The notes beneath the pieces are model-generated. The model ran no database searches and was not told the origin of the DNA. It saw only the letters and a program-made list of their open reading frames with translations. The translations under genes were made by a program, and so were the position numbers. From a virus (taxonomy: Duplodnaviria > Caudoviricetes), in IMG/VR virus record IMGVR_UViG_3300014208_000023, positions 160,001-224,000 of that record: DNA of 64,000 bases; one strand, written 5' to 3'. This document shows, one piece after another, positions 1 to 61,799 of this stretch (the stretch's first letter is position 1; every line of letters starts with the position of its first letter).

Positions 1-3000
1 GTGCTACCGAAAACTGCCAAATTTGCTTGCGAATTCAATTGTTGCGCTACGCCATCAAGATAGGTTGGATCGGCCTTTAATTTAACCGTAGTAACATTTT
101 TAGTTATAGAGCCAAGGGTGTCTGATAAGAAACTAAAGTTACCCCCACTAATTACGTTTGACTCTCCTATAGTAGAATTGATGAGCTGTGTAGCTTGTCC
201 GTCATCAGTTTTGCCAAGAGCAAAGCAATATAGTCTAATGCGGTCCTCAAGAATTTCAATTCTTTTATATACATCACTTATTTGAGTGATGAATAAGTCT
301 TCTAAGAATTGAGGGAAAACTTGAATACCAGTCTCATCTTTTTGTTGCAACATTTTATAGAAAACGGAGCTTGGCATCCTATTGTATTTTGGATTCCTTA
401 TTTCTATATGTCCTTGTGTATTGCAAAATACTTCAAGCTTTAGCTTATCAGCTACTGATATTATTTGTTGTGATACCGTAGTATAATCGCTCTTAAAGAT
501 ACTTAAATTAGCAAATGATTGTTCGAATGCCTGAATGTCATAATCTTTATCATAAGTATCATCAACTATAAATAAATTAACATCTTCATTAGCTCTAACT
601 TTCCAAGCTAATCTTCTGGTTAAGAATTTTATTTTTTTACGTAATTCTCTTCTACTTTTAACTGTTGGAGATAATTTACTATCTAATTTAAAATCAGTAT
701 AATCATATGATATATCATTGCCAATTACTTTGATTGGAGGATTATCTTTATTATTAATCTCTTTATGTATGCTAGTTATTTTTTCTTGTATTGCGGTATC
801 ATACTTTAACATGGCCGTTCTTAATCCGGCAACCGCAGTAGAGTCTGGGGCTAAAAACGCCATCTTATCCGCCAATGCCGCACGCTCTTCCGTTAGTTTT
901 CGAAGATCGGAATCAAACTTAAGGGCAGTTAATTGGCTACCCATTATCTTTTCGAAACTAGCTTCATCCATAGTTAATAATTTGAATGGAATAAAGTTAC
1001 CGTAGATAGCATTCTTATTTTTTATGTCAGCGCGAAGGCCTCTAAAATAAGAAACCGCAGATGTCTGATTAGTTATAAAATCTCTAGATAGAGTTCCAGT
1101 TTTTGTTGCGCCTTGGTAGTATGTTGCATAATTATATGGCTCACCAGTTATCAATAGAGATAACACATTCATTATATCTTGACCGGAGAATGGATCTTCA
1201 GTTAGAGATTGTCCTCTAGGAGCTCCTGGCTGATAACTATCTCCAAATAAAACTAGTGAAGCAATTCCCTGTTTCCACCTATATACTAATCCCTCAGGAT
1301 CATAAAAAGGCTGTTCCTGTTGTTTTCCTTTAATAGGTTGTGGAATATTTGAGCTAACTCTATTGAAATATCCGGCCTCTGTTGGAACGGATCCTGCTAA
1401 TGGGCCATTGTTATTTTTAACGAATACCGATTTGAATATCTGTTTATTTTCAGACAATAACTCTGGGTCTTTTCCATTGGCTATTCCAGTTTCAACGCCG
1501 GATACCGTATCATATTTAAGATCGAATGGGGTAAGCGGATCGAACAAAACTCCATTATAAACATCCATTGATGGATTTATATTTACTATTCCGTGCTCGA
1601 AAAATTTAGCGTTATCGCCGCCAGAAGCACTTACTTGATATCCTCCGTTTGAATATCTAGATATCGCTTGCTCAAAAATTCCGGTAAATATGCAGGCGCC
1701 TTGTTTGTCAGCAACGAACTGACTACGAAGAGCGAGCCATAGCGGAGTTGGAAAATCACTGCCGACGAAAATTGATTTTTCTACCGAATACCCGGCATTT
1801 ACATTTAAGGCGTCTTTTATGTTTTGAGTTAAGTCGCTTATACCCTGCATAAGCTTCAGTCCAGTTACTCCGCTTTGTAATCCTCCAGTTATTTTGGAGT
1901 CTAGTTTCTTTTTTGAATTAACAAATATGCTAATGCTATCCATTGGCTGAATAATGAGCTTATTCATATAATGAAGACGAAGTTTTTGTCTTAAAACATT
2001 TAATCTATTATTTTTATCACTGTTAGACGTTACTGCTCTTCGTTTGCTATTTTCAGTTAGCGATAACTGATTATACATTGCACTAACTATATTAACAAAT
2101 AATTTGGCTTCAGTCTTCGAAAGGCCTTGTTCTCCATATTCTTTATTGTAAGCAGGATTTTCTAATAGTATAGTGGAATCTATGGCAGAATCAACTGCCG
2201 CACTTCCAAATAAATTGGTGCCGCTACTTATATTGAAATTAATCTCTATTCCAGCAACATCTATTATTGCCCTAATACGCTTGCTAACTAATGTGCCCGG
2301 CTCTAATATAAATCGTATTGGATTAACATTTCTAGATGCTCTTTCTAGACTTAACTGACCTTTTTGTATTTCTAAAGTATCTTCGGCAAATTTAGTTAAA
2401 AGCTGAAAACCTTTATTGTTATAAAGAGCATTATTTGCGGAAGATATTGCGGTTTCAATATCATTGCTAGTAATGGTCATTATGTTATATGGGTCAGAGA
2501 AATTTATATTAAATCTTCCCTGTCCGAACTGCAGTCCGGTGGTAGTTGAAAAATCCATCGCGGTAGTAAATTCGATTACTCCAGTTCCCTCACCAAAACC
2601 ATTGGTATTGCTTGGGTTGCTTTGCCACGTAGTATATCTGGCATCCGTATTAAACGCCAGAATTCTTCTGACCCTATTAACGGTATCTTTGAACTTGCCG
2701 AGATTAACTCCAACCGCATCTAGCGCATCTACTGCTCCAAATAAAATTGGCAATAGGTGATAATCTACCTCTCCAATTTGCGTAGATATTTGAGCTATCT
2801 TGGTAAGCTTTTCATAATTACTAATTTGCTTACATTTATTTTGAAATAATGTTTTTGTAGCAAGAAGAAATATTCTTTCATCTTTATCCATTAAGTCTGG
2901 TCGAAAATTCTCAGCTAAAGAAGCAAATGCCCTCTTCTTAACTAAAATCGTGGCTTCTGGTTCCTGAAGCAAAATATCTAACTGTTTTGGCGTTGCGTCG

Positions 3001-4088: not shown

Positions 4089-6274
4089 TAGTATCCTGGA
4101 TCATTTTTTGGTTTTATAAATGTAGAGCGATGAACTGGGCTGCGTCCCGGAGCAGCATTAAAACCATTCATATCATCTTCTTGATTGATGTTATTATTAG
4201 TAGATGATTGTTTTGCGGTAAAGAATTTTTCAAATTCTTTATTAGTTTCTACCTTAACTACTACGCTAATTTCTTTTTTTGACTGAATATTAGCATTCGT
4301 CACCGCGGCCATGGTTCCAGCACGATTTCTCTGATCCGCATTTCTTGTTAAATCTTTTCTATTAACAACATTACCGTTAGTTGCTCCTGTAAGTATATTT
4401 GGATCTGGCAAACTAGGAGTATTTTTTTGTATATCTTTATTTTTATTATTTTCTTTTAATTTATCATTAAGCATTTTTAATGCAGATGCGCCACCTGTTA
4501 CATCACCTAATGCGCCTTCAGTCATTGACTTAATTCCACCCAAACTCTCTTTCAATCCTACTGATAGCTGTTCATATGCATCAATCATAGTTTGAGAGTT
4601 TATTTTTTTACCTTCATTTTCTGTAACGCCCTTTAATTCTCTAGATTCTTTATCGCCACCTCTGCTCTGGGCCGCCATCGCTCCAGATGATAGCAGCTGT
4701 AATATATTGGAGTTTCCAGATCCTAAATTTTCCCTCATACGCATTAGCGCTGACATTTGAGTTGCCATGGCGGTTCTTTCGCTAGCCAAAGCAACCTTAT
4801 TAAGTATTGTATTAGTTTCTTTTTGCAAGCTATTACCTTGGTTAGCTACAGATTCTAGTGCTTTATCTCCTACCTTTGCCGCCTTACCTAAATTACCTGA
4901 AGCCAATGCATCAAGTAATTTAGTTGCCTTTTCATCGGCACCAGGACCAGAGCCAACCATATTTCCGAATACTCCGCTTTTCATCATCTCTCGCTGCTTA
5001 ACGAACTGCGCTGCGGCATCTTGGCTTTTGGTAGCCTCATCTGATGTAACAATTCTGCCTCCGAATTGCTGCTTCATAGTATTTAGAACCATCATCATTA
5101 CTTCATCGGACTTTCCTTCACGATTTAGTTTTTCCATTTGCATCGCTCCCTGAAATCCTCCAGGGCCACCGGAACGTGCAGATACAAAGGCTTTAGTTCC
5201 AATAGTTAGCTCGCCAACTGACTTTATCATTCCTTGAATAATATCTGTAGAGGCGCTTGATGTTAGTCCAGTATTGCGTAATGCATCCATAAACTTCATC
5301 ATTACTCTGGCCGCCGCTTCAGTGTTATTACCAACATACTTAAATTGTTCAGCTACTTTTCCAAGAAATCCAGCGGTCTCGCCAAATTGCATATTAAGAT
5401 CTTTAGATAGCGTAGACATCGTGGCAAAAAGGGTAAGACCTTTACCAGCCTTATCATTAACGGCCCCCATTGGATTACCAAGATTGACGTATGCAGTGCT
5501 CATTGCCTTCATAACGGCATCCATATTTTGACCTGAACCAGTCATAACTTTCATGGCTGCATTTAGTGAAGACATTTCGCCACCTAGATTTTCACTCATA
5601 GTGATGTTTTCATCCATCACGCCAGGAATAGCATTAAAAGCTTCCGCATATTTTCCAACAGACGCAATAGTCATTCCGTTAGCTTCTGCTACGTTTGATA
5701 GGCTATTCTCATACTTTTGAGTTGTAGCCGCAAGATTTCCAATAATATCACCTTGGTCATCAAACATTTTATTTAAGTTGCCACCTGCAGAAAGCATTCC
5801 CACCATTTGGGCCTCTGCTCTTTGTCCAAATGAAGCATTATCTTTAATATTTGATAGCATTAAATTAAATGTTTTACCTCCAGGAACTTTCTCCATTAGT
5901 TGAGTTAGATGTGTCCATTCAGATCCCATCGATGAAATTTGTTCTTGAATTGTTCCAAAAGTAGCGGTAGATGCTGATAATCCTGAAAACACATCTTTTG
6001 TTTTTGTTATTTCACGAAAAGTAATATAACTTTTACTGAATTTTTCAAAAATTTCTTTGTTTTCAACAACTAGATTATTGATCTCTTTGAATTTTTTAAA
6101 TGTATCTATACCGATTTGTGACAAATCATCAAAAGCAGTTTTAAGCATTCCAGTTAAGGATGCGCTTATATTTTTAATACCTTCTTCTCTTGAAGCTAAA
6201 AATAATTCTTGAGCCTTATTATCTTCTGCTAAAATTTCTGCTGCAGTTTTTGCTTTTGTAGGAGTTTCAGACAT
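4088..6274 (-). CDS. Putative tape measure protein
   Basis: 728 aa, helical and Ala/Gly/Met-rich; canonical position after tube and the frameshifted chaperone pair. Confidence 0.65.
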   Translation of the reverse strand: MSETPTKAKTAAEILAEDNKAQELFLASREEGIKNISASLTGMLKTAFDDLSQIGIDTFKKFKEINNLVVENKEIFEKFSKSYITFREITKTKDVFSGLSASTATFGTIQEQISSMGSEWTHLTQLMEKVPGGKTFNLMLSNIKDNASFGQRAEAQMVGMLSAGGNLNKMFDDQGDIIGNLAATTQKYENSLSNVAEANGMTIASVGKYAEAFNAIPGVMDENITMSENLGGEMSSLNAAMKVMTGSGQNMDAVMKAMSTAYVNLGNPMGAVNDKAGKGLTLFATMSTLSKDLNMQFGETAGFLGKVAEQFKYVGNNTEAAARVMMKFMDALRNTGLTSSASTDIIQGMIKSVGELTIGTKAFVSARSGGPGGFQGAMQMEKLNREGKSDEVMMMVLNTMKQQFGGRIVTSDEATKSQDAAAQFVKQREMMKSGVFGNMVGSGPGADEKATKLLDALASGNLGKAAKVGDKALESVANQGNSLQKETNTILNKVALASERTAMATQMSALMRMRENLGSGNSNILQLLSSGAMAAQSRGGDKESRELKGVTENEGKKINSQTMIDAYEQLSVGLKESLGGIKSMTEGALGDVTGGASALKMLNDKLKENNKNKDIQKNTPSLPDPNILTGATNGNVVNRKDLTRNADQRNRAGTMAAVTNANIQSKKEISVVVKVETNKEFEKFFTAKQSSTNNNINQEDDMNGFNAAPGRSPVHRSTFIKPKNDPGY

Positions 6275-6626
6275 TTATTTTTTTTCTTTTTCGTCTCCGA
6301 GGGGTTAATCTTGCTCTTTCTCTTTCTATTTCGTCACTCATTTCTTTAACAAGTCTAGAAGAGGCTTCAAAATCTTCATCTGAAGAAACCATTGTTTCTG
6401 AATCAGATCCCATGGCTTGCTTAACGCCTTCAGGGTTCATAAAAGATGCGGTTAGATAGCTATTATTTTCCAACAATTTCCAGCTGTCTTGATAGTCCTC
6501 AGCCCAACTATGCTGCATCCAAGCAAGCATGACGGGGTTAAGTTTATCTAAATCCAGTTCGTCAGGAAATTTTCGATATGTTTTACACAGGAACCACAAA
6601 AATCGATGTTCTGGGTCCCTTACTAT
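6267..6626 (-). CDS. C-terminal (-1 frame) part of the long tail assembly chaperone (lambda gpGT-like)
   Basis: The -1 frame is open from the slippery site (IVRDPEHRF-LWFLCKTY...) through ORF 6267..6599, whose only start is a TTG without a clear SD. Confidence 0.75.
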   Translation of the reverse strand: MVRDPEHRFLWFLCKTYRKFPDELDLDKLNPVMLAWMQHSWAEDYQDSWKLLENNSYLTASFMNPEGVKQAMGSDSETMVSSDEDFEASSRLVKEMSDEIERERARLTPRRRKRKKINV

Positions 6627-6632
6627 TTTTTT
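6590..6632 (-). promoter_or_regulatory. Programmed -1 ribosomal frameshift signal
   Basis: A AAA AAA (6632-6626) directly before TAG; 6-nt spacer; then hairpin GGGACC-CAGAA/UUUUG-U-GGUUCC (6619-6590). Confidence 0.75.
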
Positions 6633-7228
6633 AGTTCTTCAGAAACCTCTTTCATATCTTCAACGGTTTTAATTGAAAATTGAGAATCTGAAGTTGTTTT
6701 TAATTCTTGGTATGCCGTAAATAGTTGATCGGTAACGGTTTCTTCAAGATCTTCTAGCATTTTAATCTTATCAGATAGACTATTTACTTTAACCATAACG
6801 GCTATTTCGTGCTGATCAATTTTTATTAAAGAATGAGCTAGAGTGTTAAACTTAAGGTTATAGGCCTCATCTACCTTATTGCTAACATCAACTAGCGTTA
6901 GATATACTTGGCGCTGCTCTCTGGACTTTAATGTGCGCAAAGTAAAGGTAACTCCTCCAATTTTTACATCTTTTGTCATCTTACCAATATCACACAGATA
7001 CTCTAATCTGGTTTTTGACTGCTGGCTAATTGGTGGATTTATCTTCTCTTTTCTTGCGCGGCGTAGGGCCTCTTCTTCTTCGGCAGATACCTCGAATGAA
7101 TCTAGCGGCTGGCCATATGAAGAAAAGCTCTCGTCTGGCATATCTTCATCTCCGCCAATCATGGGAAATTCGCGCATCGTTCGGCTACCAACTGATTTTT
7201 TTAGAACAGGCTTTTGAAAATCTGACAT
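6623..7228 (-). CDS. Tail assembly chaperone (short form)
   Basis: Lies between tube and tape measure; KDVKIGGVTFTLRTL...LAHSLIKID pattern; ends at a slippery heptamer; SD AAGGAG. Confidence 0.75.
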   Translation of the reverse strand: MSDFQKPVLKKSVGSRTMREFPMIGGDEDMPDESFSSYGQPLDSFEVSAEEEEALRRARKEKINPPISQQSKTRLEYLCDIGKMTKDVKIGGVTFTLRTLKSREQRQVYLTLVDVSNKVDEAYNLKFNTLAHSLIKIDQHEIAVMVKVNSLSDKIKMLEDLEETVTDQLFTAYQELKTTSDSQFSIKTVEDMKEVSEELKK

Positions 7229-7292
7229 TTTTCTCCTTTAAACATTACTGGGCTTAAATATGCTATATCTTGCCTTATGGGCTTTATTAAAT

Positions 7293-48403: not shown

Positions 48404-48442
48404 AAAAAAAAAAAAAACGGAGAGCATTTTCATGCTCTCCGC
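48404..48442 (-). terminator. Intrinsic terminator after the decoration-like gene
   Basis: GCGGAGAGCAT-GAAA-ATGCTCTCCGT followed by a long U-tract. Confidence 0.88.
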
Positions 48443-49267: not shown

Positions 49268-50629
49268 TTATTTTCCCCATATACTATTGATAAATTTCAT
49301 AGTATCTTCGTCTGGCTTATGGCCGATAAGGTCCCAAATACTGTTCTCTTGCTTGGCTTTTTGGGCATTTTCAGTGGGTTTTACCTCTGTTGGTTTCACT
49401 TCCTCTTTTGTGGGTTCCGCTTTATTAGATTTTGCTTCTTCTACTGATTTATTTACGATTCCAGTCATAGTAGCTTTTAAATTATCTATTGCTATGGATA
49501 ATGATTTGAATGAATCTCTTACGTCTTGAATATCATTTGCCACGCCAGGGACCTGTAAATAACTAACTGCTTTAGCAAAGGATCCTTGCTTGGCTTTTGC
49601 TTCGAAAGTTTCTTTTATTTTTTCAAATGTTCCAAGCATATCAATGAATATTTTTGAATCATTTTTTACTTCCTGTATTTCATTTGGAGTAACTGGCTCA
49701 TTCTTAATAGATTTAGATTGAACAGTATTTAAAATTGTAATATAATCATTAGAGGCCTTAACTAATTTGCCCATAAAATCTTCTACGGTTTTGAAATACA
49801 CTTCTTCTTCTGGAACGGCTTTTTTTAAATCACCCATCTGATTTAAAAGATCTGCAGAATTTTCTTTAATGTTTTTTACTTTTGGACTGGTATTAAAAAT
49901 ATATCCCTCAATACCACCAATTGTTCCGCCAATTAATGCTCCAACGCCAGCACCAGCAAGCGATAGCGGCCCTCCCCAAGACGTAATAATAGCGCCAACG
50001 AGCGCTCCGCTCGCAGCCCCAGCCAATGCTCCTTCGCCAACTCCGCCAATATCACTAACTAGCTTGTCGCCCTTATTTCCACCGACAAAATCTACCGCCT
50101 TATGTGCGTAGTCTCCAAGATCGCCTAAAAAATCAGCTTTTTTTTTAAACCCATCTAGGCATTCGTCTGCCAATGCGCGAAGCTCTTCTTCGTCTGCATT
50201 ATCCATATCGTTACCAATACGAATTAGTTCCATCGCCAAATCTTTTTCGGCGTCTTTTAAGAACATATCGGAGCTGCCAGATGGTGCCTTGGAAAGAATC
50301 TTGTTAATGATTATGTTTTGACGCTCGTTTATGTTTTCAACCAAAGCATTAATCTTATCATAAGATGGAGCAACAACTACCGCATTTGGATGAGCATACT
50401 CCGCTATATTGTTCTCATATTTAATATAGCTTTCTGGCTTAACGCCATATAATGCTTCTATGGTGGAAATATCATCAGATCCAACACGAGGATACGTTTC
50501 ACTTCTATAATTTTTAAGCTCTTTACTCTCTTTTTCTTTTTTCTTTTCTTCAGCAGCAGTCTTAACTAGGCCTTTTTCTTCGGCAAGTTTAGCATAAGCC
50601 TCAAACATTTCACTTTTTCGTTCTCTCAT
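49268..50629 (-). CDS. Putative internal head/ejection protein with a glycine-zipper membrane segment
   Basis: GALAGAASGALVGAIITSWGGPLSLAGAGVGALIGGTIGG; motifs VKTAA and KKKAD. Confidence 0.5.
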   Translation of the reverse strand: MRERKSEMFEAYAKLAEEKGLVKTAAEEKKKEKESKELKNYRSETYPRVGSDDISTIEALYGVKPESYIKYENNIAEYAHPNAVVVAPSYDKINALVENINERQNIIINKILSKAPSGSSDMFLKDAEKDLAMELIRIGNDMDNADEEELRALADECLDGFKKKADFLGDLGDYAHKAVDFVGGNKGDKLVSDIGGVGEGALAGAASGALVGAIITSWGGPLSLAGAGVGALIGGTIGGIEGYIFNTSPKVKNIKENSADLLNQMGDLKKAVPEEEVYFKTVEDFMGKLVKASNDYITILNTVQSKSIKNEPVTPNEIQEVKNDSKIFIDMLGTFEKIKETFEAKAKQGSFAKAVSYLQVPGVANDIQDVRDSFKSLSIAIDNLKATMTGIVNKSVEEAKSNKAEPTKEEVKPTEVKPTENAQKAKQENSIWDLIGHKPDEDTMKFINSIWGK

Positions 50630-56658: not shown

Positions 56659-57387
56659 TTAGAAGGATCGTAAAGTGGGCTCGCCACCCGTATTACTTTC
56701 TTCTAATGCATCTACCTTATGTAGTCTTGGACATTCTGCAGCCTGAGCCATATCTGACTCAAGCATATGATCATAACCGCATTCAGGACATATGTCCCAA
56801 AAACCATCTTCTTGTCTTTTTTCTCTTACTCCTGATTCCGGTCCGTGGTAATTGTCGTCAGTTGGTAGTTTTCCTAATCCAAACCACGACGCCACCTCAT
56901 CACCAAATCCTTGGCCCTTATTATTCATAACGCCAGATTTTGGGCCATCATCAGCCATATTACATTCGCCACAATCACTTTTTGGAGCATTAAATACCCA
57001 GCCAATATTTTCTAAATTATCTATCTGTTTCTCTGGAGTAAGAACTTCGGAGGTTACGTCTTTAATAACATCAATAAGCGTTGATGGTTTCTTCTTGGTA
57101 GTAGATTTAGATTTAGATTTCGTTTTGGTTTTTGATTTTGTTTTAGATTTCTTTTTGGCCTTTTTCTTTGCCTCTTTAACCATTGCAAACTGACCAGAAG
57201 CAATAGTCTCCATAAATTGAGTAATTATTTCTGCTTCTTCTGGCAGATTCATTGACTCGAATATTTCTGCCGAATCAGCCAGAGATTGAAGGGCTACTTC
57301 AATCCCGACCTCTTCGTTTTTAGCCGGTAGCGCTTCTAATACTGAAGCTTCAATTTCATTTGCAGAATGACTTTTTTTGAAAAACAT
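56659..57387 (-). CDS. Hypothetical head-module protein with a Lys/Ser/Thr basic tract and a C-terminal CxxC
   Basis: KKKAKKKSKTKSKTKTKSKSKSTTKKK; CPECGYDH. Confidence 0.6.
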   Translation of the reverse strand: MFFKKSHSANEIEASVLEALPAKNEEVGIEVALQSLADSAEIFESMNLPEEAEIITQFMETIASGQFAMVKEAKKKAKKKSKTKSKTKTKSKSKSTTKKKPSTLIDVIKDVTSEVLTPEKQIDNLENIGWVFNAPKSDCGECNMADDGPKSGVMNNKGQGFGDEVASWFGLGKLPTDDNYHGPESGVREKRQEDGFWDICPECGYDHMLESDMAQAAECPRLHKVDALEESNTGGEPTLRSF

Positions 57388-57395
57388 TTTAAACC

Positions 57396-57875
57396 TTAAT
57401 TACTAGTTAATTTACCTAATTTATGATAGCCATCAAATAAAAGAGCTATAATATAATCTTTATGAACTTCTGTTACCTTACCATCGCCAAGTTTTGGATG
57501 AACTATTAAATCTCCAATATTATATGAGTGGTTTGGATTATATTTTTTGAAATCAGAGACTTTCTCATTACTAACGGCAATCTCCCAAAGCCTTCTGAGG
57601 TCTTGCTTTGGTTTTTGCTCTGGTTCGTCAATTAGATTTTTTTGTGGTGGGTGTGGATTTCTAATGACTTCTGCAACTCTTCGCGCGGCTTGCTCTGCCG
57701 TGTGATGTCGCTCAACTGTTTTTCCTATAACAACGGTATAGCTCATTATTGATCCATCAAGATTTTTATTTTCCCAAATTCTAATTCCTGAATCGTGCTT
57801 AACAGAACGCCCGGATTGTAATTCCTTAACAATCCAGGCGATAGTTTCTTTATCTGAAAGATCAGATGCTGTTAC
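57396..57875 (-). CDS. -1 frame extension of 57872..58432, ending in a Tudor/SH3-like domain
   Basis: Frame is open for 43 codons upstream of ATG 57746, back to the slippery site; C-terminal YNIGDLIVHPKLGDGKVTEV. May also be expressed alone from ATG 57746. Confidence 0.6.
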   Translation of the reverse strand, partial: VTASDLSDKETIAWIVKELQSGRSVKHDSGIRIWENKNLDGSIMSYTVVIGKTVERHHTAEQAARRVAEVIRNPHPPQKNLIDEPEQKPKQDLRRLWEIAVSNEKVSDFKKYNPNHSYNIGDLIVHPKLGDGKVTEVHKDYIIALLFDGYHKLGKLTSN

Positions 57876-57881
57876 TTTTTT
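57852..57881 (-). promoter_or_regulatory. Candidate programmed -1 frameshift signal
   Basis: A AAA AAG (57881-57875) directly before TAA; 7-nt spacer; stem ATCTGA-TCTT-TCAGAT (57867-57852). Confidence 0.6.
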
Positions 57882-58432
57882 TTTGAGGACTTATCGGCTG
57901 GCTTCTTGCCTTTTTTACCCTTTTGAGCGGCGCGCATTTTTTCCATGCGCTCTTTCATTGACATCTTCTTGCCTGGCTTCTTATCTTTCTTTGAGGAGCC
58001 GCTTGAAGAACTTGATGAAGAGCCACTTGAAGAAGAGCTTGATGATCCTGACTTTCCTGAATCTGGGCTTTTCTTTTTCGCAGCAGCCGTCTTTAGAATG
58101 CTATCGGCTAGAACAATCGTGGCCGCAGCTAGTCTATCCATGCCTTGGTCTTCAAGTTCAGTCGAAATCTCTAGAAGAAGTCCGGCGGTGTCTTCAAGAG
58201 AAACTGAAGCTTCTTTCTTTTCTCCTTCTTTTTCATGGCATTCACAGCCACAATCGCCATCACAATCCTCTTCGCATTTACAGTCCGAAGCAAGTTTTTT
58301 CATTTCCTCTTCGACTTCGCTTACTTCCTCCTTGCCTTCTCGTGAGAAGGCAAGTTTTTCCATACTTTTCTGGTGTTCTGCGGATTCGGCAATTTTAACC
58401 ATTTCCGCAGCAATATCAAAGTGATACTTCAT
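57872..58432 (-). CDS. Internal head/core-like protein with repeated K-x-A motifs and a Ser/Lys-rich tail
   Basis: Directly after the protease gene; VKIAE, EKLAF, KKLAS, KKEAS, LKTAA. Confidence 0.6.
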   Translation of the reverse strand: MKYHFDIAAEMVKIAESAEHQKSMEKLAFSREGKEEVSEVEEEMKKLASDCKCEEDCDGDCGCECHEKEGEKKEASVSLEDTAGLLLEISTELEDQGMDRLAAATIVLADSILKTAAAKKKSPDSGKSGSSSSSSSGSSSSSSSGSSKKDKKPGKKMSMKERMEKMRAAQKGKKGKKPADKSSKKK

Positions 58433-58433
58433 A

Positions 58434-61400
58434 TTAGTACTTTCTGCCTGAGAAGGCTAGGTCAAGCTCGGCCTGTAGATCATCACCACCTGAGTGAGAG
58501 TCACCGGTCTCGCGGATTCCGACCTGGGGAACTAGTCCTGCGGTCTTTACGGAGCCGACTGGCATTTTGGCAATTACTCTTTTGTAACTATCAAAACCTT
58601 CGTCGTTCCACTTCATTGATTCATCAACTTGGCGACCGATCGCAGCGCGTTCGTTCGTGATGAGTCCTCTGCGAGCCATTTCATTGGCAAGCTCGTATGA
58701 GCGAGCAAGCTTGATTTTGTAGGTTCCCATTTCCTCTTCAAGCTTGGCCTTTTCAGCCGCCGCCGTTAGAAGCTTAGCAAACTCCGCTCCACCATCAGCT
58801 TGACCGTAGAAGTCACGCCAGTATTTGACAACTTCTGAATCTAGTCCTTCAGCGACCAACTTATCAAGGTCTTCTTTACGGACAGTTCCAGCGACAATCA
58901 TCTTGTTTAGACGCTCGGCCTCTTTCTTAACCTTTGGGGCCGCTCTGGCTACTTCAAGCATACGCTTCTGAACTTCTGGCTTCGTTTCAACTAGGCCTAG
59001 GCTATCAGAAGGCTTGACATCAAGTTGCGTCTGGCCATCGGCAAGCTTGTTAGCATCTGCCATAACTGGATTGAACTTGATTGATTCAGCAGCGACTGAA
59101 TCCGTGATGTGCTCTGCAAGTTTCGTGCGATAAGCCGCGCGGCCTTCTTTTGTCGTTAGATCCATAGCTGCCTTTTCTACTACTTTTGCATTTGGTGGAA
59201 CTGGTTGGCCTGGAGCAAGCTCGACCACTAATCCGCTGGTTCCTCCGTCATTTACCATTCCGAAATCATCAGCATCTTCGTGCTTTGGTGATCTCTGTGT
59301 TTCTGGCTGCATATCTGGAACTGGATTTTTTTCCGTAGCTGGCATGTCTTCATAATCTGAATCGCCATGAAGATCTTGATCTAGATCTGGAAGAATGTCA
59401 TCATCACCAACATCGGTCATGCCTTCATCTAGTGTCTCTGGAGAGAACTCGCCATCTGCCTCAAAGTCATCATCACCCATGTTAAAATCTCCATCTCCAA
59501 CGTTATTTTCGTCTTCATCAGTTGCGTCCTGAGCGCTCTTTAGACGCGCAGTAAGGTTTTCAACGCCACTTGCATATTTGGCGTATGAGCGAAGAACGCC
59601 CTCGGCATCATTAAGTGATAGCTCGGCCTCTTCAAAAGCCGTTCCAATCATTCCTCTGATGCTTGCATTCTTAACTGTCTCTGAATCAGCCATATCGCTG
59701 ATTAGTTTGAGTTCTGAATAGTGAGCCTTTAGCTCGGAAAGTGATTTTTTAGCGGCAGATACTAGCATTCTTTCAAGTTTGCGACGCATCTCGGCAGCTG
59801 GAGTTAGAAGTGCGGCAGTTGCCTGTGGAAGAGCCTTAATGCCCTCTTCAAGCTCGCCCATTTGTGGTCCGGCTCCTCCAATTTCACGAACAGCCTCAAG
59901 AAGCTCGGCGGCACTATCACGAGTTTTCTCGGCCAGTTTTTCTGCAACTTCCTGTGGATCGCCACTACCACCAGCATCAGCTTCCGCATCTGGAGTAGCA
60001 GCAGGAGCCGCGCCCATATCGGCTACTGGAGCAGCAGCGGCTGGAGCTGGAGCAGCTGCTCCTGGCATTTCCTGAGCGCGCTTATATACTGAAGCGGCTT
60101 TCTCAAGACCAACTTCGCGAATCTTCTCTAGCATTTTGCCACCGAATTCTTTGGTAGCAATCATGTCGAATAGCTGGTCTGACTGACCGGCAGAAATTTC
60201 ATTAACTGAAGCGGTGAAAATAAGCTTGTCACCTTTCTCATCCTTCGCGAATACCTGCCAACCTGAATTGGCTAGATCGTCACGGCCATTTGATCCGGCT
60301 TTACGGATGAAACGAGCCTTAAGTGAAGCTCTTGAAAGCTTCTCTTTAATGGCAAGATCATCGCCATAAAGTCCATCAACATCGCCAACGCCTGGAAATG
60401 GTTTTGCCCCAACCATTTGTTTGTCACCTTTTTCACGAACCTGATCGCGAAGAGGGTCTATTTCATACTTAACTTTTCCTGGGGTTGGCTCATTAACGCC
60501 ACCACCACCGAGCCAGTAACCTTTTTTATCAAGGTTTTTCTTGGCGTTTTCAAGGGCTTCTTTACGACGAGCCGAACGCTCGCCTAATGGACGAACTTCG
60601 GACTTAATCTTATCGTCGCCTTCGCCACCATAATCTTTCGTCTGGAGCATTTGCTTGTCTTCTCCATCACGAGCTTTTTCGTTAAGAGGGTCGGCTGGAT
60701 ATTTTACTTTTCCTGGCGTTGGTTCATTAACGCCACCGCCACCTAGGTAGTATCCCTTTTTATCCATTGAGTTGTCCCGATCAGTCATAATATCCTCTTG
60801 TTTTTTGTTAAGGTCTTCCAAAGTCTGTTCCATTGATGATTTCAATATTTTGAGTTCTGTAAATAATGCTTCAATATCGGCATATACCGGAGCAATATTT
60901 TCATTTGATTTTAAATTTTCTTCTTTTGGTAGATCTTTAAGCTCTACCAGATCATTACTGATCTCCGTCAAATTTTGCTGCATTTGAGCAATCTTCTCTT
61001 GAAGATTTGAAGAATACGTGCTATTTTTAATATTTTGAGCGGACGCAAAAATAGTTCTAATGCGAGCACTCGGGTCAGCAGGATTAACTACAATTGACAA
61101 TTCAATTGGCTTGAGCTGACAATTTATTTCACCGTAACCCGTTTTATTTTTCATATGATCACAAAAATCACGCTCCGAACGAGCTACGCGGCCACAAGAA
61201 TCTTCTGCGCAGATTGCTTTTTCAACAATTGTTCCCATGCTTACTGATGTAGAGTATCCAGTTGAGACCTTACGAGCTAGTTCTGGGTATGAAACTTTAT
61301 CTAAAGCACATAGCGCAATTACTCGTTTGCTCTTAAAATCGTAATAAGTATCAAGAATAACACCACGAATAGCATCTACCGAGTTTGATTTATGATCAAC

Positions 61401-61799
61401 ACATAGTGGCTTGCCAATCCATTCCTTATGAGCCTTAACTAATTCTGACTCTGGAAAAATATCTCCATTGTTATTTTTGTATGGCCGAATATTTGAATCG
61501 CTGCATTTCCAACGAAGACTTTCTGGACCATCTCCGCCAACTTCCCAGCTAGCCGTTACTGGCTGTCCATCACGACCTGTTTTTAGGGAGCCATCATCAT
61601 TATAAAGACAAGCCTCCGCGGCCGTCATCATGAATGTGCTGAAATAAGTAAAATCATTTGCTTTTGGAGCTATTTTTTTGAGTTCTCCGGCAAACTTCTC
61701 AAATCTTTTGTTAATATCTTCATTGCTCAATACTGATTCGGCAGACTGAATTGAAGTTGGATTGAGAGCGAATGACTCGCCTTGTTTATGAAAACTCAT
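58434..61799 (-). CDS. Prohead maturation protease fused to a scaffold/core domain
   Basis: KPLCVDH (His), IRGVILD, ELARKV..G....VSMG, ELSIVVNPADPSARI (Ser) match the HK97/assemblin protease fold; long acidic and coiled C-terminal region. Confidence 0.8.
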   Translation of the reverse strand: MSFHKQGESFALNPTSIQSAESVLSNEDINKRFEKFAGELKKIAPKANDFTYFSTFMMTAAEACLYNDDGSLKTGRDGQPVTASWEVGGDGPESLRWKCSDSNIRPYKNNNGDIFPESELVKAHKEWIGKPLCVDHKSNSVDAIRGVILDTYYDFKSKRVIALCALDKVSYPELARKVSTGYSTSVSMGTIVEKAICAEDSCGRVARSERDFCDHMKNKTGYGEINCQLKPIELSIVVNPADPSARIRTIFASAQNIKNSTYSSNLQEKIAQMQQNLTEISNDLVELKDLPKEENLKSNENIAPVYADIEALFTELKILKSSMEQTLEDLNKKQEDIMTDRDNSMDKKGYYLGGGGVNEPTPGKVKYPADPLNEKARDGEDKQMLQTKDYGGEGDDKIKSEVRPLGERSARRKEALENAKKNLDKKGYWLGGGGVNEPTPGKVKYEIDPLRDQVREKGDKQMVGAKPFPGVGDVDGLYGDDLAIKEKLSRASLKARFIRKAGSNGRDDLANSGWQVFAKDEKGDKLIFTASVNEISAGQSDQLFDMIATKEFGGKMLEKIREVGLEKAASVYKRAQEMPGAAAPAPAAAAPVADMGAAPAATPDAEADAGGSGDPQEVAEKLAEKTRDSAAELLEAVREIGGAGPQMGELEEGIKALPQATAALLTPAAEMRRKLERMLVSAAKKSLSELKAHYSELKLISDMADSETVKNASIRGMIGTAFEEAELSLNDAEGVLRSYAKYASGVENLTARLKSAQDATDEDENNVGDGDFNMGDDDFEADGEFSPETLDEGMTDVGDDDILPDLDQDLHGDSDYEDMPATEKNPVPDMQPETQRSPKHEDADDFGMVNDGGTSGLVVELAPGQPVPPNAKVVEKAAMDLTTKEGRAAYRTKLAEHITDSVAAESIKFNPVMADANKLADGQTQLDVKPSDSLGLVETKPEVQKRMLEVARAAPKVKKEAERLNKMIVAGTVRKEDLDKLVAEGLDSEVVKYWRDFYGQADGGAEFAKLLTAAAEKAKLEEEMGTYKIKLARSYELANEMARRGLITNERAAIGRQVDESMKWNDEGFDSYKRVIAKMPVGSVKTAGLVPQVGIRETGDSHSGGDDLQAELDLAFSGRKY

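Follow-up and report, generated by a model that had tools for sequence, protein, structure and literature searches.

Among phage structural genes, those for tail chaperones and major capsid proteins are well-known cases of recoding; we know of no description of it for a head protein that is encoded next to the protease and whose extension relatives exchange for others. Here we describe a candidate for such a gene in a 64,000-nucleotide (nt) stretch, hereafter the window, of the virus record IMGVR_UViG_3300014208_000023 (428,320 bp with direct terminal repeats, of which the window is bases 160001-224000). At positions 57396-58432, where all genes are read on the minus strand, a short open reading frame (ORF) next to the head-protease gene, ORF-A, ends in nine A's, a G and a stop codon, and very probably forms a single recoded gene with the frame downstream of it, a frame annotated as an intergenic gap followed by a separate gene, ORF-B.

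The slip sequences at this locus are those of dnaX, which is recoded through transcription on nine A's in Thermus thermophilus and through the ribosome on A_AAA_AAG in Escherichia coli, in either case giving two products that share an N-terminus. A stop codon directly past the site, as found in the window, mirrors the 'reversed' dnaX genes (PMC5009743). Whereas slippage in dnaX truncates a clamp-loader subunit, slippage in the phage would add a two-domain module to a head-module protein, and the phage site has no conserved stem-loop or Shine-Dalgarno (SD)-like stimulator. Gene 10A/10B of T7/T3 and the major head protein of Lactobacillus phage A2, which PMC5009743 and PMC10885494 (its reference 41) give as recoded capsid extensions, are alike in combining a head-module gene, a 3' -1 slip site and a minor C-terminally extended form. 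In contrast to these, the carrier here is a small, mostly disordered Lys/Ser-rich protein beside the protease and not the major capsid protein, the extension is of Tudor type and not an immunoglobulin-like decoration, and the add-on is swapped among relatives. Gag-Pol of retroviruses and totiviruses follows the same logic, in that a rare -1 event loads a small fixed dose of a protein that a protease later frees; however, the virus considered here is a double-stranded DNA phage, its add-on is a binding module instead of a polymerase, and packaging and cleavage are so far only our inference. In addition, the carrier model resembles the capsid-targeting sequence of T4.

The closest cultured relative by protease sequence is Bacillus phage G, in which the same signal (A_AAA_AAG, TAG, then Val) occurs three genes past the protease, in the joined coding sequence gp22/gp23 (JN638751 19865..21534; L022 7900..9569). 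There the -1 frame of gp22 continues as K-K-V-E-D for more than 300 amino acids (aa). Phage G differs in that an amidase-LysM protein, gp22, is extended by a second lytic domain and that the site has six A's; the join comes from the annotation. Proteomics of phage G virions found gp22 and did not find gp23 (PMC12484599).

The slip site and the frame downstream of ORF-A

ORF-A (57872..58432, minus strand) encodes 186 aa ending in KKK-stop, its 3' end reading TCC TCA AAA AAA AAG TAA. The slip site (57875..57884, minus) is made up of A9 at 57884..57876 and G at 57875, and contains an in-frame heptamer A_AAA_AAG (57881..57875, minus) with the 0-frame stop TAA at 57874..57872 directly after it. In the -1 frame, a TAA at 57893..57891 (minus), two codons 5' of the A-run, shuts the frame, so that the extension can be entered only at the run; past this TAA the translation is V L K K K V T A S. 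The extension frame (57399..57875, minus) has 159 codons from GTA at 57875, ending at the stop at 57398..57396, and its first ATG, GTG or TTG is the annotated ATG of ORF-B at codon 44, the first 43 codons being start-less. All of this agrees with an earlier note on the same DNA, made from the letters alone, which had described the end of ORF-A, the closed and then open -1 frame and the 43 start-less codons. The predicted long form would have 186 + 159 = 345 aa.

No other site in the 428-kb genome has a run of at least nine A's joining two long frames, and no other in-frame A_AAA_AAG has a stop directly after it. Open -1 frames past a stop are common in this genome, with at least 40 open codons in 33% of ORFs of at least 100 codons, and therefore the case must rest on other evidence. 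Comparison with relatives, the predicted fold of the extension and the pattern of substitutions raise the junction above chance, and they support the proposal of the earlier note that a one-base slip at the A-run fuses ORF-A to the downstream frame in a protein of ~345 aa.

Two hairpins follow the site. A small one of 6 bp (57852..57867, minus; 57867..57862 pairs with 57857..57852 across a 4-nt loop) lies 7 nt past the heptamer, as the earlier note had pointed out; it is weak, occurs in the window's clade only and is absent in the three other slip-site lineages, so that this part of the proposal finds no conserved stimulator behind it. A strong hairpin of 12 bp (57808..57840, minus) lies inside the extension frame, where it encodes the helix at extension residues 8-20; the 70-nt fold that includes it has -25.8 kcal/mol (z -5.7). 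At 34 nt from the heptamer it is too distant for a classical stimulator, and it may instead terminate part of the transcripts or act as a pause site, and so reduce expression of the add-on as well. The coding helix of the window and a terminator stem in the relative L009 derive from one ancestral sequence. A likeness between the extension stretch IVKELQSG and the C-terminal motif VVQKLQSSG of a distant group of homologues with in-frame add-ons was rejected, BLASTP giving it no support; from its sequence, the stretch is better explained as hairpin sequence common to L009.

Conservation of the junction in relatives

ORF-A has 28 homologues; DNA was fetched for most of the near ones and all three frames were read at their 3' ends. 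The earlier note had named conservation of the heptamer and of the open -1 frame in related genomes as a check, and an A9/A10-G-stop followed by an open start-less -1 frame is found in four lineages (the window, L014, L003/L004 and L011/L012), with ORF-A identity to the window of 71-83% (alignment A1). All four end in xxA AAA AAA AAG TAR, with the -1 frame shut just upstream and open downstream. L014 has the same 15 nt as the window (TCA AAA AAA AAG TAA, A9), L003 and L004 both read GAA AAA AAA AAG TAA (A10), and L011 and L012 both read GAA AAA AAA AAG TAG (A10). Start-less -1 codons number 43 in the window, 16 in L014, 72 in L003 and 40 in L011. The add-ons have 159 aa in the window, 140 aa in L003/L004 (ending 3 nt before the next gene) and 70 aa in L011/L012, and that of L014 runs to the contig end.

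These add-ons are mutually unrelated (Tudor-like, DUF7336-like and orphan), with the exception of L014 and the window. The L014 add-on aligns to extension residues 83-100, at the entry of the Tudor module, with a Smith-Waterman score of 45 that 0 of 5000 shuffles reach, and its -1 frame enters the module three residues past the slip site; BLASTP with the 21-aa L014 fragment gave no match. The -1 frame of L011 matches DUF7336 and phrog_3002 from extension residue 13 onward, its first ATG coming only at codon 41. For the L003 add-on there is no detectable homologue.

In eight lineages without an add-on (L009, L013, L023, L005, L007, L017/18, L019) the run is broken or absent. L009 reads AAA AAG AAA TAA, L013 reads AAA AAG AAG TAG, and in L023 a terminator comes after TCT AAA AAG TAG; the run is absent altogether from L005, L007, L017/18 and L019. 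An A9/A10-G-stop thus stands at the junction in 4/4 lineages with an out-of-frame add-on and in 0/8 without an add-on. A metagenome scan added three more loci, all of them add-on-free, and GTDB genomes gave no match.

A different arrangement is seen in L016 (3033..3050), which retains A10 despite an in-frame add-on: the sequence continues AAG GTA GTA, and one extra G relative to the L011 type brings a peptidoglycan-binding-like add-on in frame. As far as can be read from the sequence, a slip at L016 would truncate the protein rather than extend it and would yield a minor truncated form, in an arrangement that mirrors Thermus dnaX. In distant ORF-A homologues (265-292 aa) the run is missing and the C-terminal add-ons are in frame. 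Given the in-frame add-ons of L016 and of these distant homologues, C-terminal add-ons are a trait of the family.

Two predicted domains in the extension

The 159 extension residues were modelled with AlphaFold2 at a mean predicted local distance difference test (pLDDT) of 72. Domain 1 (residues 6-73; 57657..57860, minus; pLDDT 70-83) is predicted to be an alpha-beta3-alpha fold composed of helix 8-20, strands 31-37, 43-50 and 53-57, and helix 60-72. Structurally it comes closest to Bacillus subtilis YkuJ (2ffg_B), which aligns with the whole domain, residues 6-73, at a middling Z of 7.5, a root-mean-square deviation (rmsd) of 2.1, 64/79 residues and 3% identity. The domain covers the annotated 'intergenic linker' and continues for 30 codons into ORF-B as annotated. 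The ATG at which that annotation begins (57744..57746, minus) has no SD-like 4-mer upstream and is extension residue 44, and since this Met falls within predicted strand 43-50, a start at the ATG would halve domain 1. In the earlier note the 43 codons had been regarded as a linker; by the model they are instead the first half of a folded domain.

Domain 2 (residues 115-157; 57405..57533, minus; pLDDT 84-86) is predicted to be a five-strand Tudor/SH3-like barrel of the UvrD/PcrA/CarD/TRCF-RID type. Its motif G-D-L-I-V-H-P-K-L-G-D-G-K-V compares with G-D-x-[IV]-x-H-x-K-[FL]-G-x-G-x-V, which the UvrD/PcrA Tudor and CarD/TRCF RID domains have in common along with the five-strand barrel. Against the CarD_TRCF_RID Pfam profile the domain itself scores weakly, at 15.6 bits versus a cut-off of 23; among its homologues, P0030 and P0032 exceed the Pfam cut-offs for PF02559 and PF21196 (CarD_TRCF_RID, PcrA_UvrD_tudor), and P0034 reaches 22.7 bits versus a cut-off of 23.9. 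The model fits 7egt_B with a template modelling (TM) score of 0.73, rmsd 0.9 Å and 26% identity, and further matches are 9dqs_A (Z 4.9), 7egs_B (Z 4.7) and 5dma_A (Z 4.7). The Tudor/SH3-like C-terminal domain that the earlier note had recognized is upheld by the Pfam matches of the homologues and by this barrel match. A helix with W-E-x-A-V precedes the domain, as it does in a small bacterial protein family (P0033-P0039). Unlike in UvrD and CarD, the domain sits after this helix at the end of a phage head-module protein, and RNA-polymerase binding would be an expectation drawn from the family.

The 159-aa extension had no match in cultured phages (tblastn) or in IMG/VR, and an exhaustive HMMER search with it returned only the near-identical P0029 and weak Tudor-family matches. 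Substitutions could be counted against L015, which is ~96% identical. Within the first 43 codons there are four differences, three of which are synonymous third-position changes in the extension frame and none of which is synonymous in the ORF-A frame. The annotated ORF-B part has 9 synonymous and 6 non-synonymous differences, bringing the 159-codon frame to 12 and 7, respectively. Read-through of the TAA, beyond which the 0 frame is open for 41 codons, was also considered and was rejected on the count of 0/4 synonymous differences in that frame.

Length of the A-run in independent assemblies

Public runs were examined as Logan contigs. The run length given in the earlier note recurs, with A9 in X1 (depth 18) and X2 (depth 26), both from groundwater and possibly the source samples, and in X7, a ~95% relative from freshwater. 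The exception is L015 (run X3, depth 6.85), which has A8 and thereby places the extension in the +1 frame; X7 has A9 yet has most single-nucleotide polymorphisms and a 12-nt deletion in common with this sibling. The A8 of L015 is either a low-depth error or real homopolymer variation or loss. Separate assemblies are concordant for L003 with L004 and for L011 with L012, and an assembly artefact is unlikely. Elsewhere in the genome, four A9/A10 runs are embedded deep in long open frames, one of them at window 50138..50146. The longest homopolymer of the genome is an A14 run on the plus strand of the window (48404..48417), outside any long frame.

Alternative explanations

The simplest annotation would keep two separate genes: ORF-A stops at its TAA, a 129-nt intergenic stretch with a terminator-like hairpin follows, ORF-B (116 aa) starts from the ATG at 57746, and the -1 frame is open by chance. 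ORF-B does have an ATG and is what gene callers annotate, on its own (P0029); open -1 frames past stops are common, the 0 frame here being open as well for 41 codons; and the 12-bp hairpin has a true terminator as its homologue in L009. However, the ATG lies within a predicted beta-strand of a domain that starts at extension residue 6 and is preceded by no SD-like motif, the substitutions agree with coding in the extension frame, the hairpin is without a clean U-tract, and L014, L003 and L011 have the same junction and no usable start codon. We consider two separate genes very unlikely. Variation of the homopolymer at the DNA level would be another explanation, either as phase variation by replication slippage or with a true genome of A10 and wrong assemblies. 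The A8 of L015/X3 beside the A9 of its close sibling X7 would fit it, as would the single extra G that puts the L016 add-on in frame relative to the L011 type. On the other hand, the -1 arrangement recurs across four diverged lineages and across independent assemblies (X1, X2, X7, L003 versus L004, L011 versus L012), no fused-frame assembly was seen for the window's lineage, and the other A9/A10 runs of the genome are in frame. Because of the A8 in L015 the explanation stays alive, at a low probability. Lastly, the locus could be a decaying fusion: a single base would have dropped out recently from an ancestral in-frame gene, leaving its downstream part to drift as a pseudogene. In-frame relatives exist, namely L016 and the distant group, and L009 resembles a later deletion of the add-on that kept its first ~90 nt. 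Yet the 159-codon frame is intact with mostly synonymous change relative to L015, the extension folds into two domains in the model, and an identical 'break' in the same phase would have to be accounted for in four lineages. A decaying fusion is the most improbable of the explanations considered.

There are also points that weigh against a single recoded gene. The 345-aa form is a prediction from sequence and structural modelling. ORF-A fused in frame to the particular add-on of the window was not found, nor was any fused ORF-A homologue longer than 326 aa, the latter being weak evidence. The ATG of ORF-B, together with the many genes of this phage that lack an SD, leaves room for independent initiation; an SD-like 4-mer stands upstream of 40% of genes versus 16% in the background, which is weak either way. 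At the nucleotide level, the 12-bp hairpin has as its homologue the stem of an intrinsic terminator that follows ORF-A in L009 (~2195..2230), a clean one with stem and T5, in a lineage without the add-on. The model of domain 1 was built on two near-identical sequences, and its match to YkuJ is of middling strength. To these comes the +1 frame of L015. Having set these points against the comparative, fold and substitution evidence, we still regard a single recoded gene as very probable.

Slippage by RNA polymerase or by the ribosome

Both routes of slippage yield the same K-K-K-V-T-A-S protein, and sequence alone therefore cannot separate them; both may act together. Transcriptional slippage as the main route has, in our judgement, not quite an even chance, and ribosomal slippage as the main route is possible but somewhat doubtful. 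The slight lean toward RNA polymerase comes from runs that are always 9-10 long, from the lack of a conserved 3' structure and from the tolerance of 33 internal A_AAA_AAG. One added A gives exactly the extension frame. Every out-of-frame junction has either A9 (the window and L014) or A10 (L003 and L011), L016 retains A10 although its add-on is in frame, and 9-10 A is the length of efficient slippage by bacterial RNA polymerase as well as of the RNA-DNA hybrid (PMC5009743). Homopolymeric A or T runs of about nine or more are typical of programmed transcriptional slippage as in Thermus dnaX, IS elements and Shigella spa13/mxiE. In the long ORFs of the genome AAA-AAA-AAA is depleted (3 versus 14.0 expected), and so is AAA-AAA-AAG (1 versus 8.6 expected), the single occurrence of the latter being the slip site of ORF-A.

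A purely ribosomal -1 shift of the dnaX type, nested within the single recoded gene, would involve tandem or P-site tRNA-Lys slippage on A_AAA_AAG aided by the stop and the 6-bp stem. Several observations favor it over the transcriptional lean. The heptamer, of the X_XXY_YYZ type that allows both tRNAs to re-pair after a -1 shift, is in frame with a directly adjacent stop in 4/4 lineages, and dnaX genes with a 0-frame stop directly past the shift site have been described (PMC5009743). The phage encodes tRNA-Lys(UUU) and no tRNA-Lys(CUU). In phage G, gp22 and gp23 join at GGT AAA AAG TAG, with six A's, which is too few for efficient polymerase slippage. Against it, 3' structure is not conserved across lineages, the folds of L014, L003 and L011 showing nothing significant versus shuffles (z -0.5, 0.2 and 2.0, respectively), and no SD-like element lies upstream of the heptamer. 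Furthermore, the run is held at 9-10 A, more than the heptamer requires, and with 33 in-frame A_AAA_AAG inside long ORFs of the genome the heptamer by itself probably shifts little in the host. Of the dnaX-type ribosomal shift put forward in the earlier note, the in-frame heptamer stands, but the conserved 9-10 A make slippage by RNA polymerase at least as likely.

ORF-A and its genomic neighbors

The N-terminal region of ORF-A is helical and conserved, and the protein as a whole is mostly disordered (Atlas model pLDDT 0.53). It contains a Cys cluster (58282..58235, minus), an invariant ILKTAA motif (58099..58082, minus), in which K114 and A116 are invariant in alignment A1, a Ser/Lys-rich tract and a basic helix (57973..57902, minus). 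ILKTAA matches hydrophobic-x-K-x-A, a putative head-protease pattern, and the junction K-K-V-T-A-S does not. ORF-A received no Pfam, PHROG or Atlas assignment and had no detectable relationship to phage G gp20. One homologue, P0008, has 172 aa and no add-on and comes from a EukProt transcriptome assembly (Trinity transcript id); apparently a relative of the phage was transcribed in an RNA-seq sample of a eukaryote culture, and the sample behind P0008 might thus provide RNA data on this group of phages.

ORF-A begins one base past the gene of a 1121-aa protease-scaffold protein (58434..61799, minus), in which a prohead-protease domain (residues ~108-241) is fused to a long scaffold-like region. 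The head-maturation-protease domain matches phrog_18299 (E 2e-14), and the best cultured match of the protein is Bacillus phage G gp19. Judged by sequence, this neighbor places ORF-A in a head-module context. Onward from ORF-A, the order is the disputed stretch, annotated ORF-B (57396..57746) and a gene of 242 aa (56659..57387); relatives have a conserved order of protease, ORF-A, a 'MFFKK' protein and a 233-aa protein. The extension stop lies 9 nt short of the next conserved gene, so that no intergenic space remains. The 242-aa protein and its homologues in L001, L003, L005 and L007 have an architecture like that of ORF-A, in which a helical N-terminus is followed by F-A-M-V-K-E-A-K-K-K, a tract rich in Lys and a C-terminal part that is Cys-rich and variable, a similarity in organization that suggests a set of carrier proteins comprising both.

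The genome has a GC content of 39.7%, and DNA of the phage is present in groundwater metagenomes, with close relatives in wastewater and freshwater. Outside the window, at genome positions 371499..371569 and 371895..371967, ARAGORN finds two tRNA-like genes whose anticodon it gives as undetermined, with the two bases 'tc'. A second similar site is found at window 6273..7237 (minus), where a 204-codon ORF ends in CTA AAA AAA TAG TAA and the -1 frame is shut 4 codons upstream and then open for 119 codons, ~34 of them start-less, the candidate slip site itself being at 6623..6630; a PHROG search with both parts gave no match.

Discussion

If ORF-A and the frame downstream of it are indeed a single recoded gene, most expression would end at the TAA and give the 186-aa protein, and a minority would slip one base at A9-G to give the 345-aa protein (KKK-V-T-A-S...). 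The slip would be either one A added by RNA polymerase or a -1 shift of the ribosome on A_AAA_AAG with the stop next to it. The long form would add an alpha/beta domain resembling YkuJ and, after it, a Tudor barrel of the UvrD/CarD type. ORF-A would be a procapsid-internal or scaffold-associated carrier, an inference from its position, with its N-terminal part bringing a small dose of the add-on into the head; the head protease may then free the add-on, and relatives would fill the same slot with other add-ons. The head-internal role and cleavage at the junction are hypothetical, and so are the labels 'core protein' and 'fixed ratio' of the earlier note, which come from gene position and analogy only.

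By analogy, the host transcription complex is weakly indicated as the target of both extension domains. After cross-linking in cells, YkuJ co-elutes with RNA polymerase, NusA and GreA (PMC10090944), and UvrD/CarD Tudor domains bind the polymerase beta subunit, according to the titles of 7egs and 4kbm. A tentative and rather unlikely extension of these ideas would be a cargo slot, in which a conserved cassette of A9-10, G and stop on a small head-internal carrier doses swappable domains into the capsid at a set low ratio. In the window these would be two RNA-polymerase-associated-like domains, freed by the protease and ejected with the DNA, that take hold of the host's transcription complex within seconds of infection.

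Should the single recoded gene hold true, annotation of uncultured 400-kb phages misses whole start-less domains. The family would then also offer a natural series, with slippage that extends, slippage that truncates and no slippage, for studies of how slippery runs set protein ratios. It would further point to a route by which giant phages may load host-takeover modules into the particle, in this case a probable RNA-polymerase binder by analogy with its domain family.

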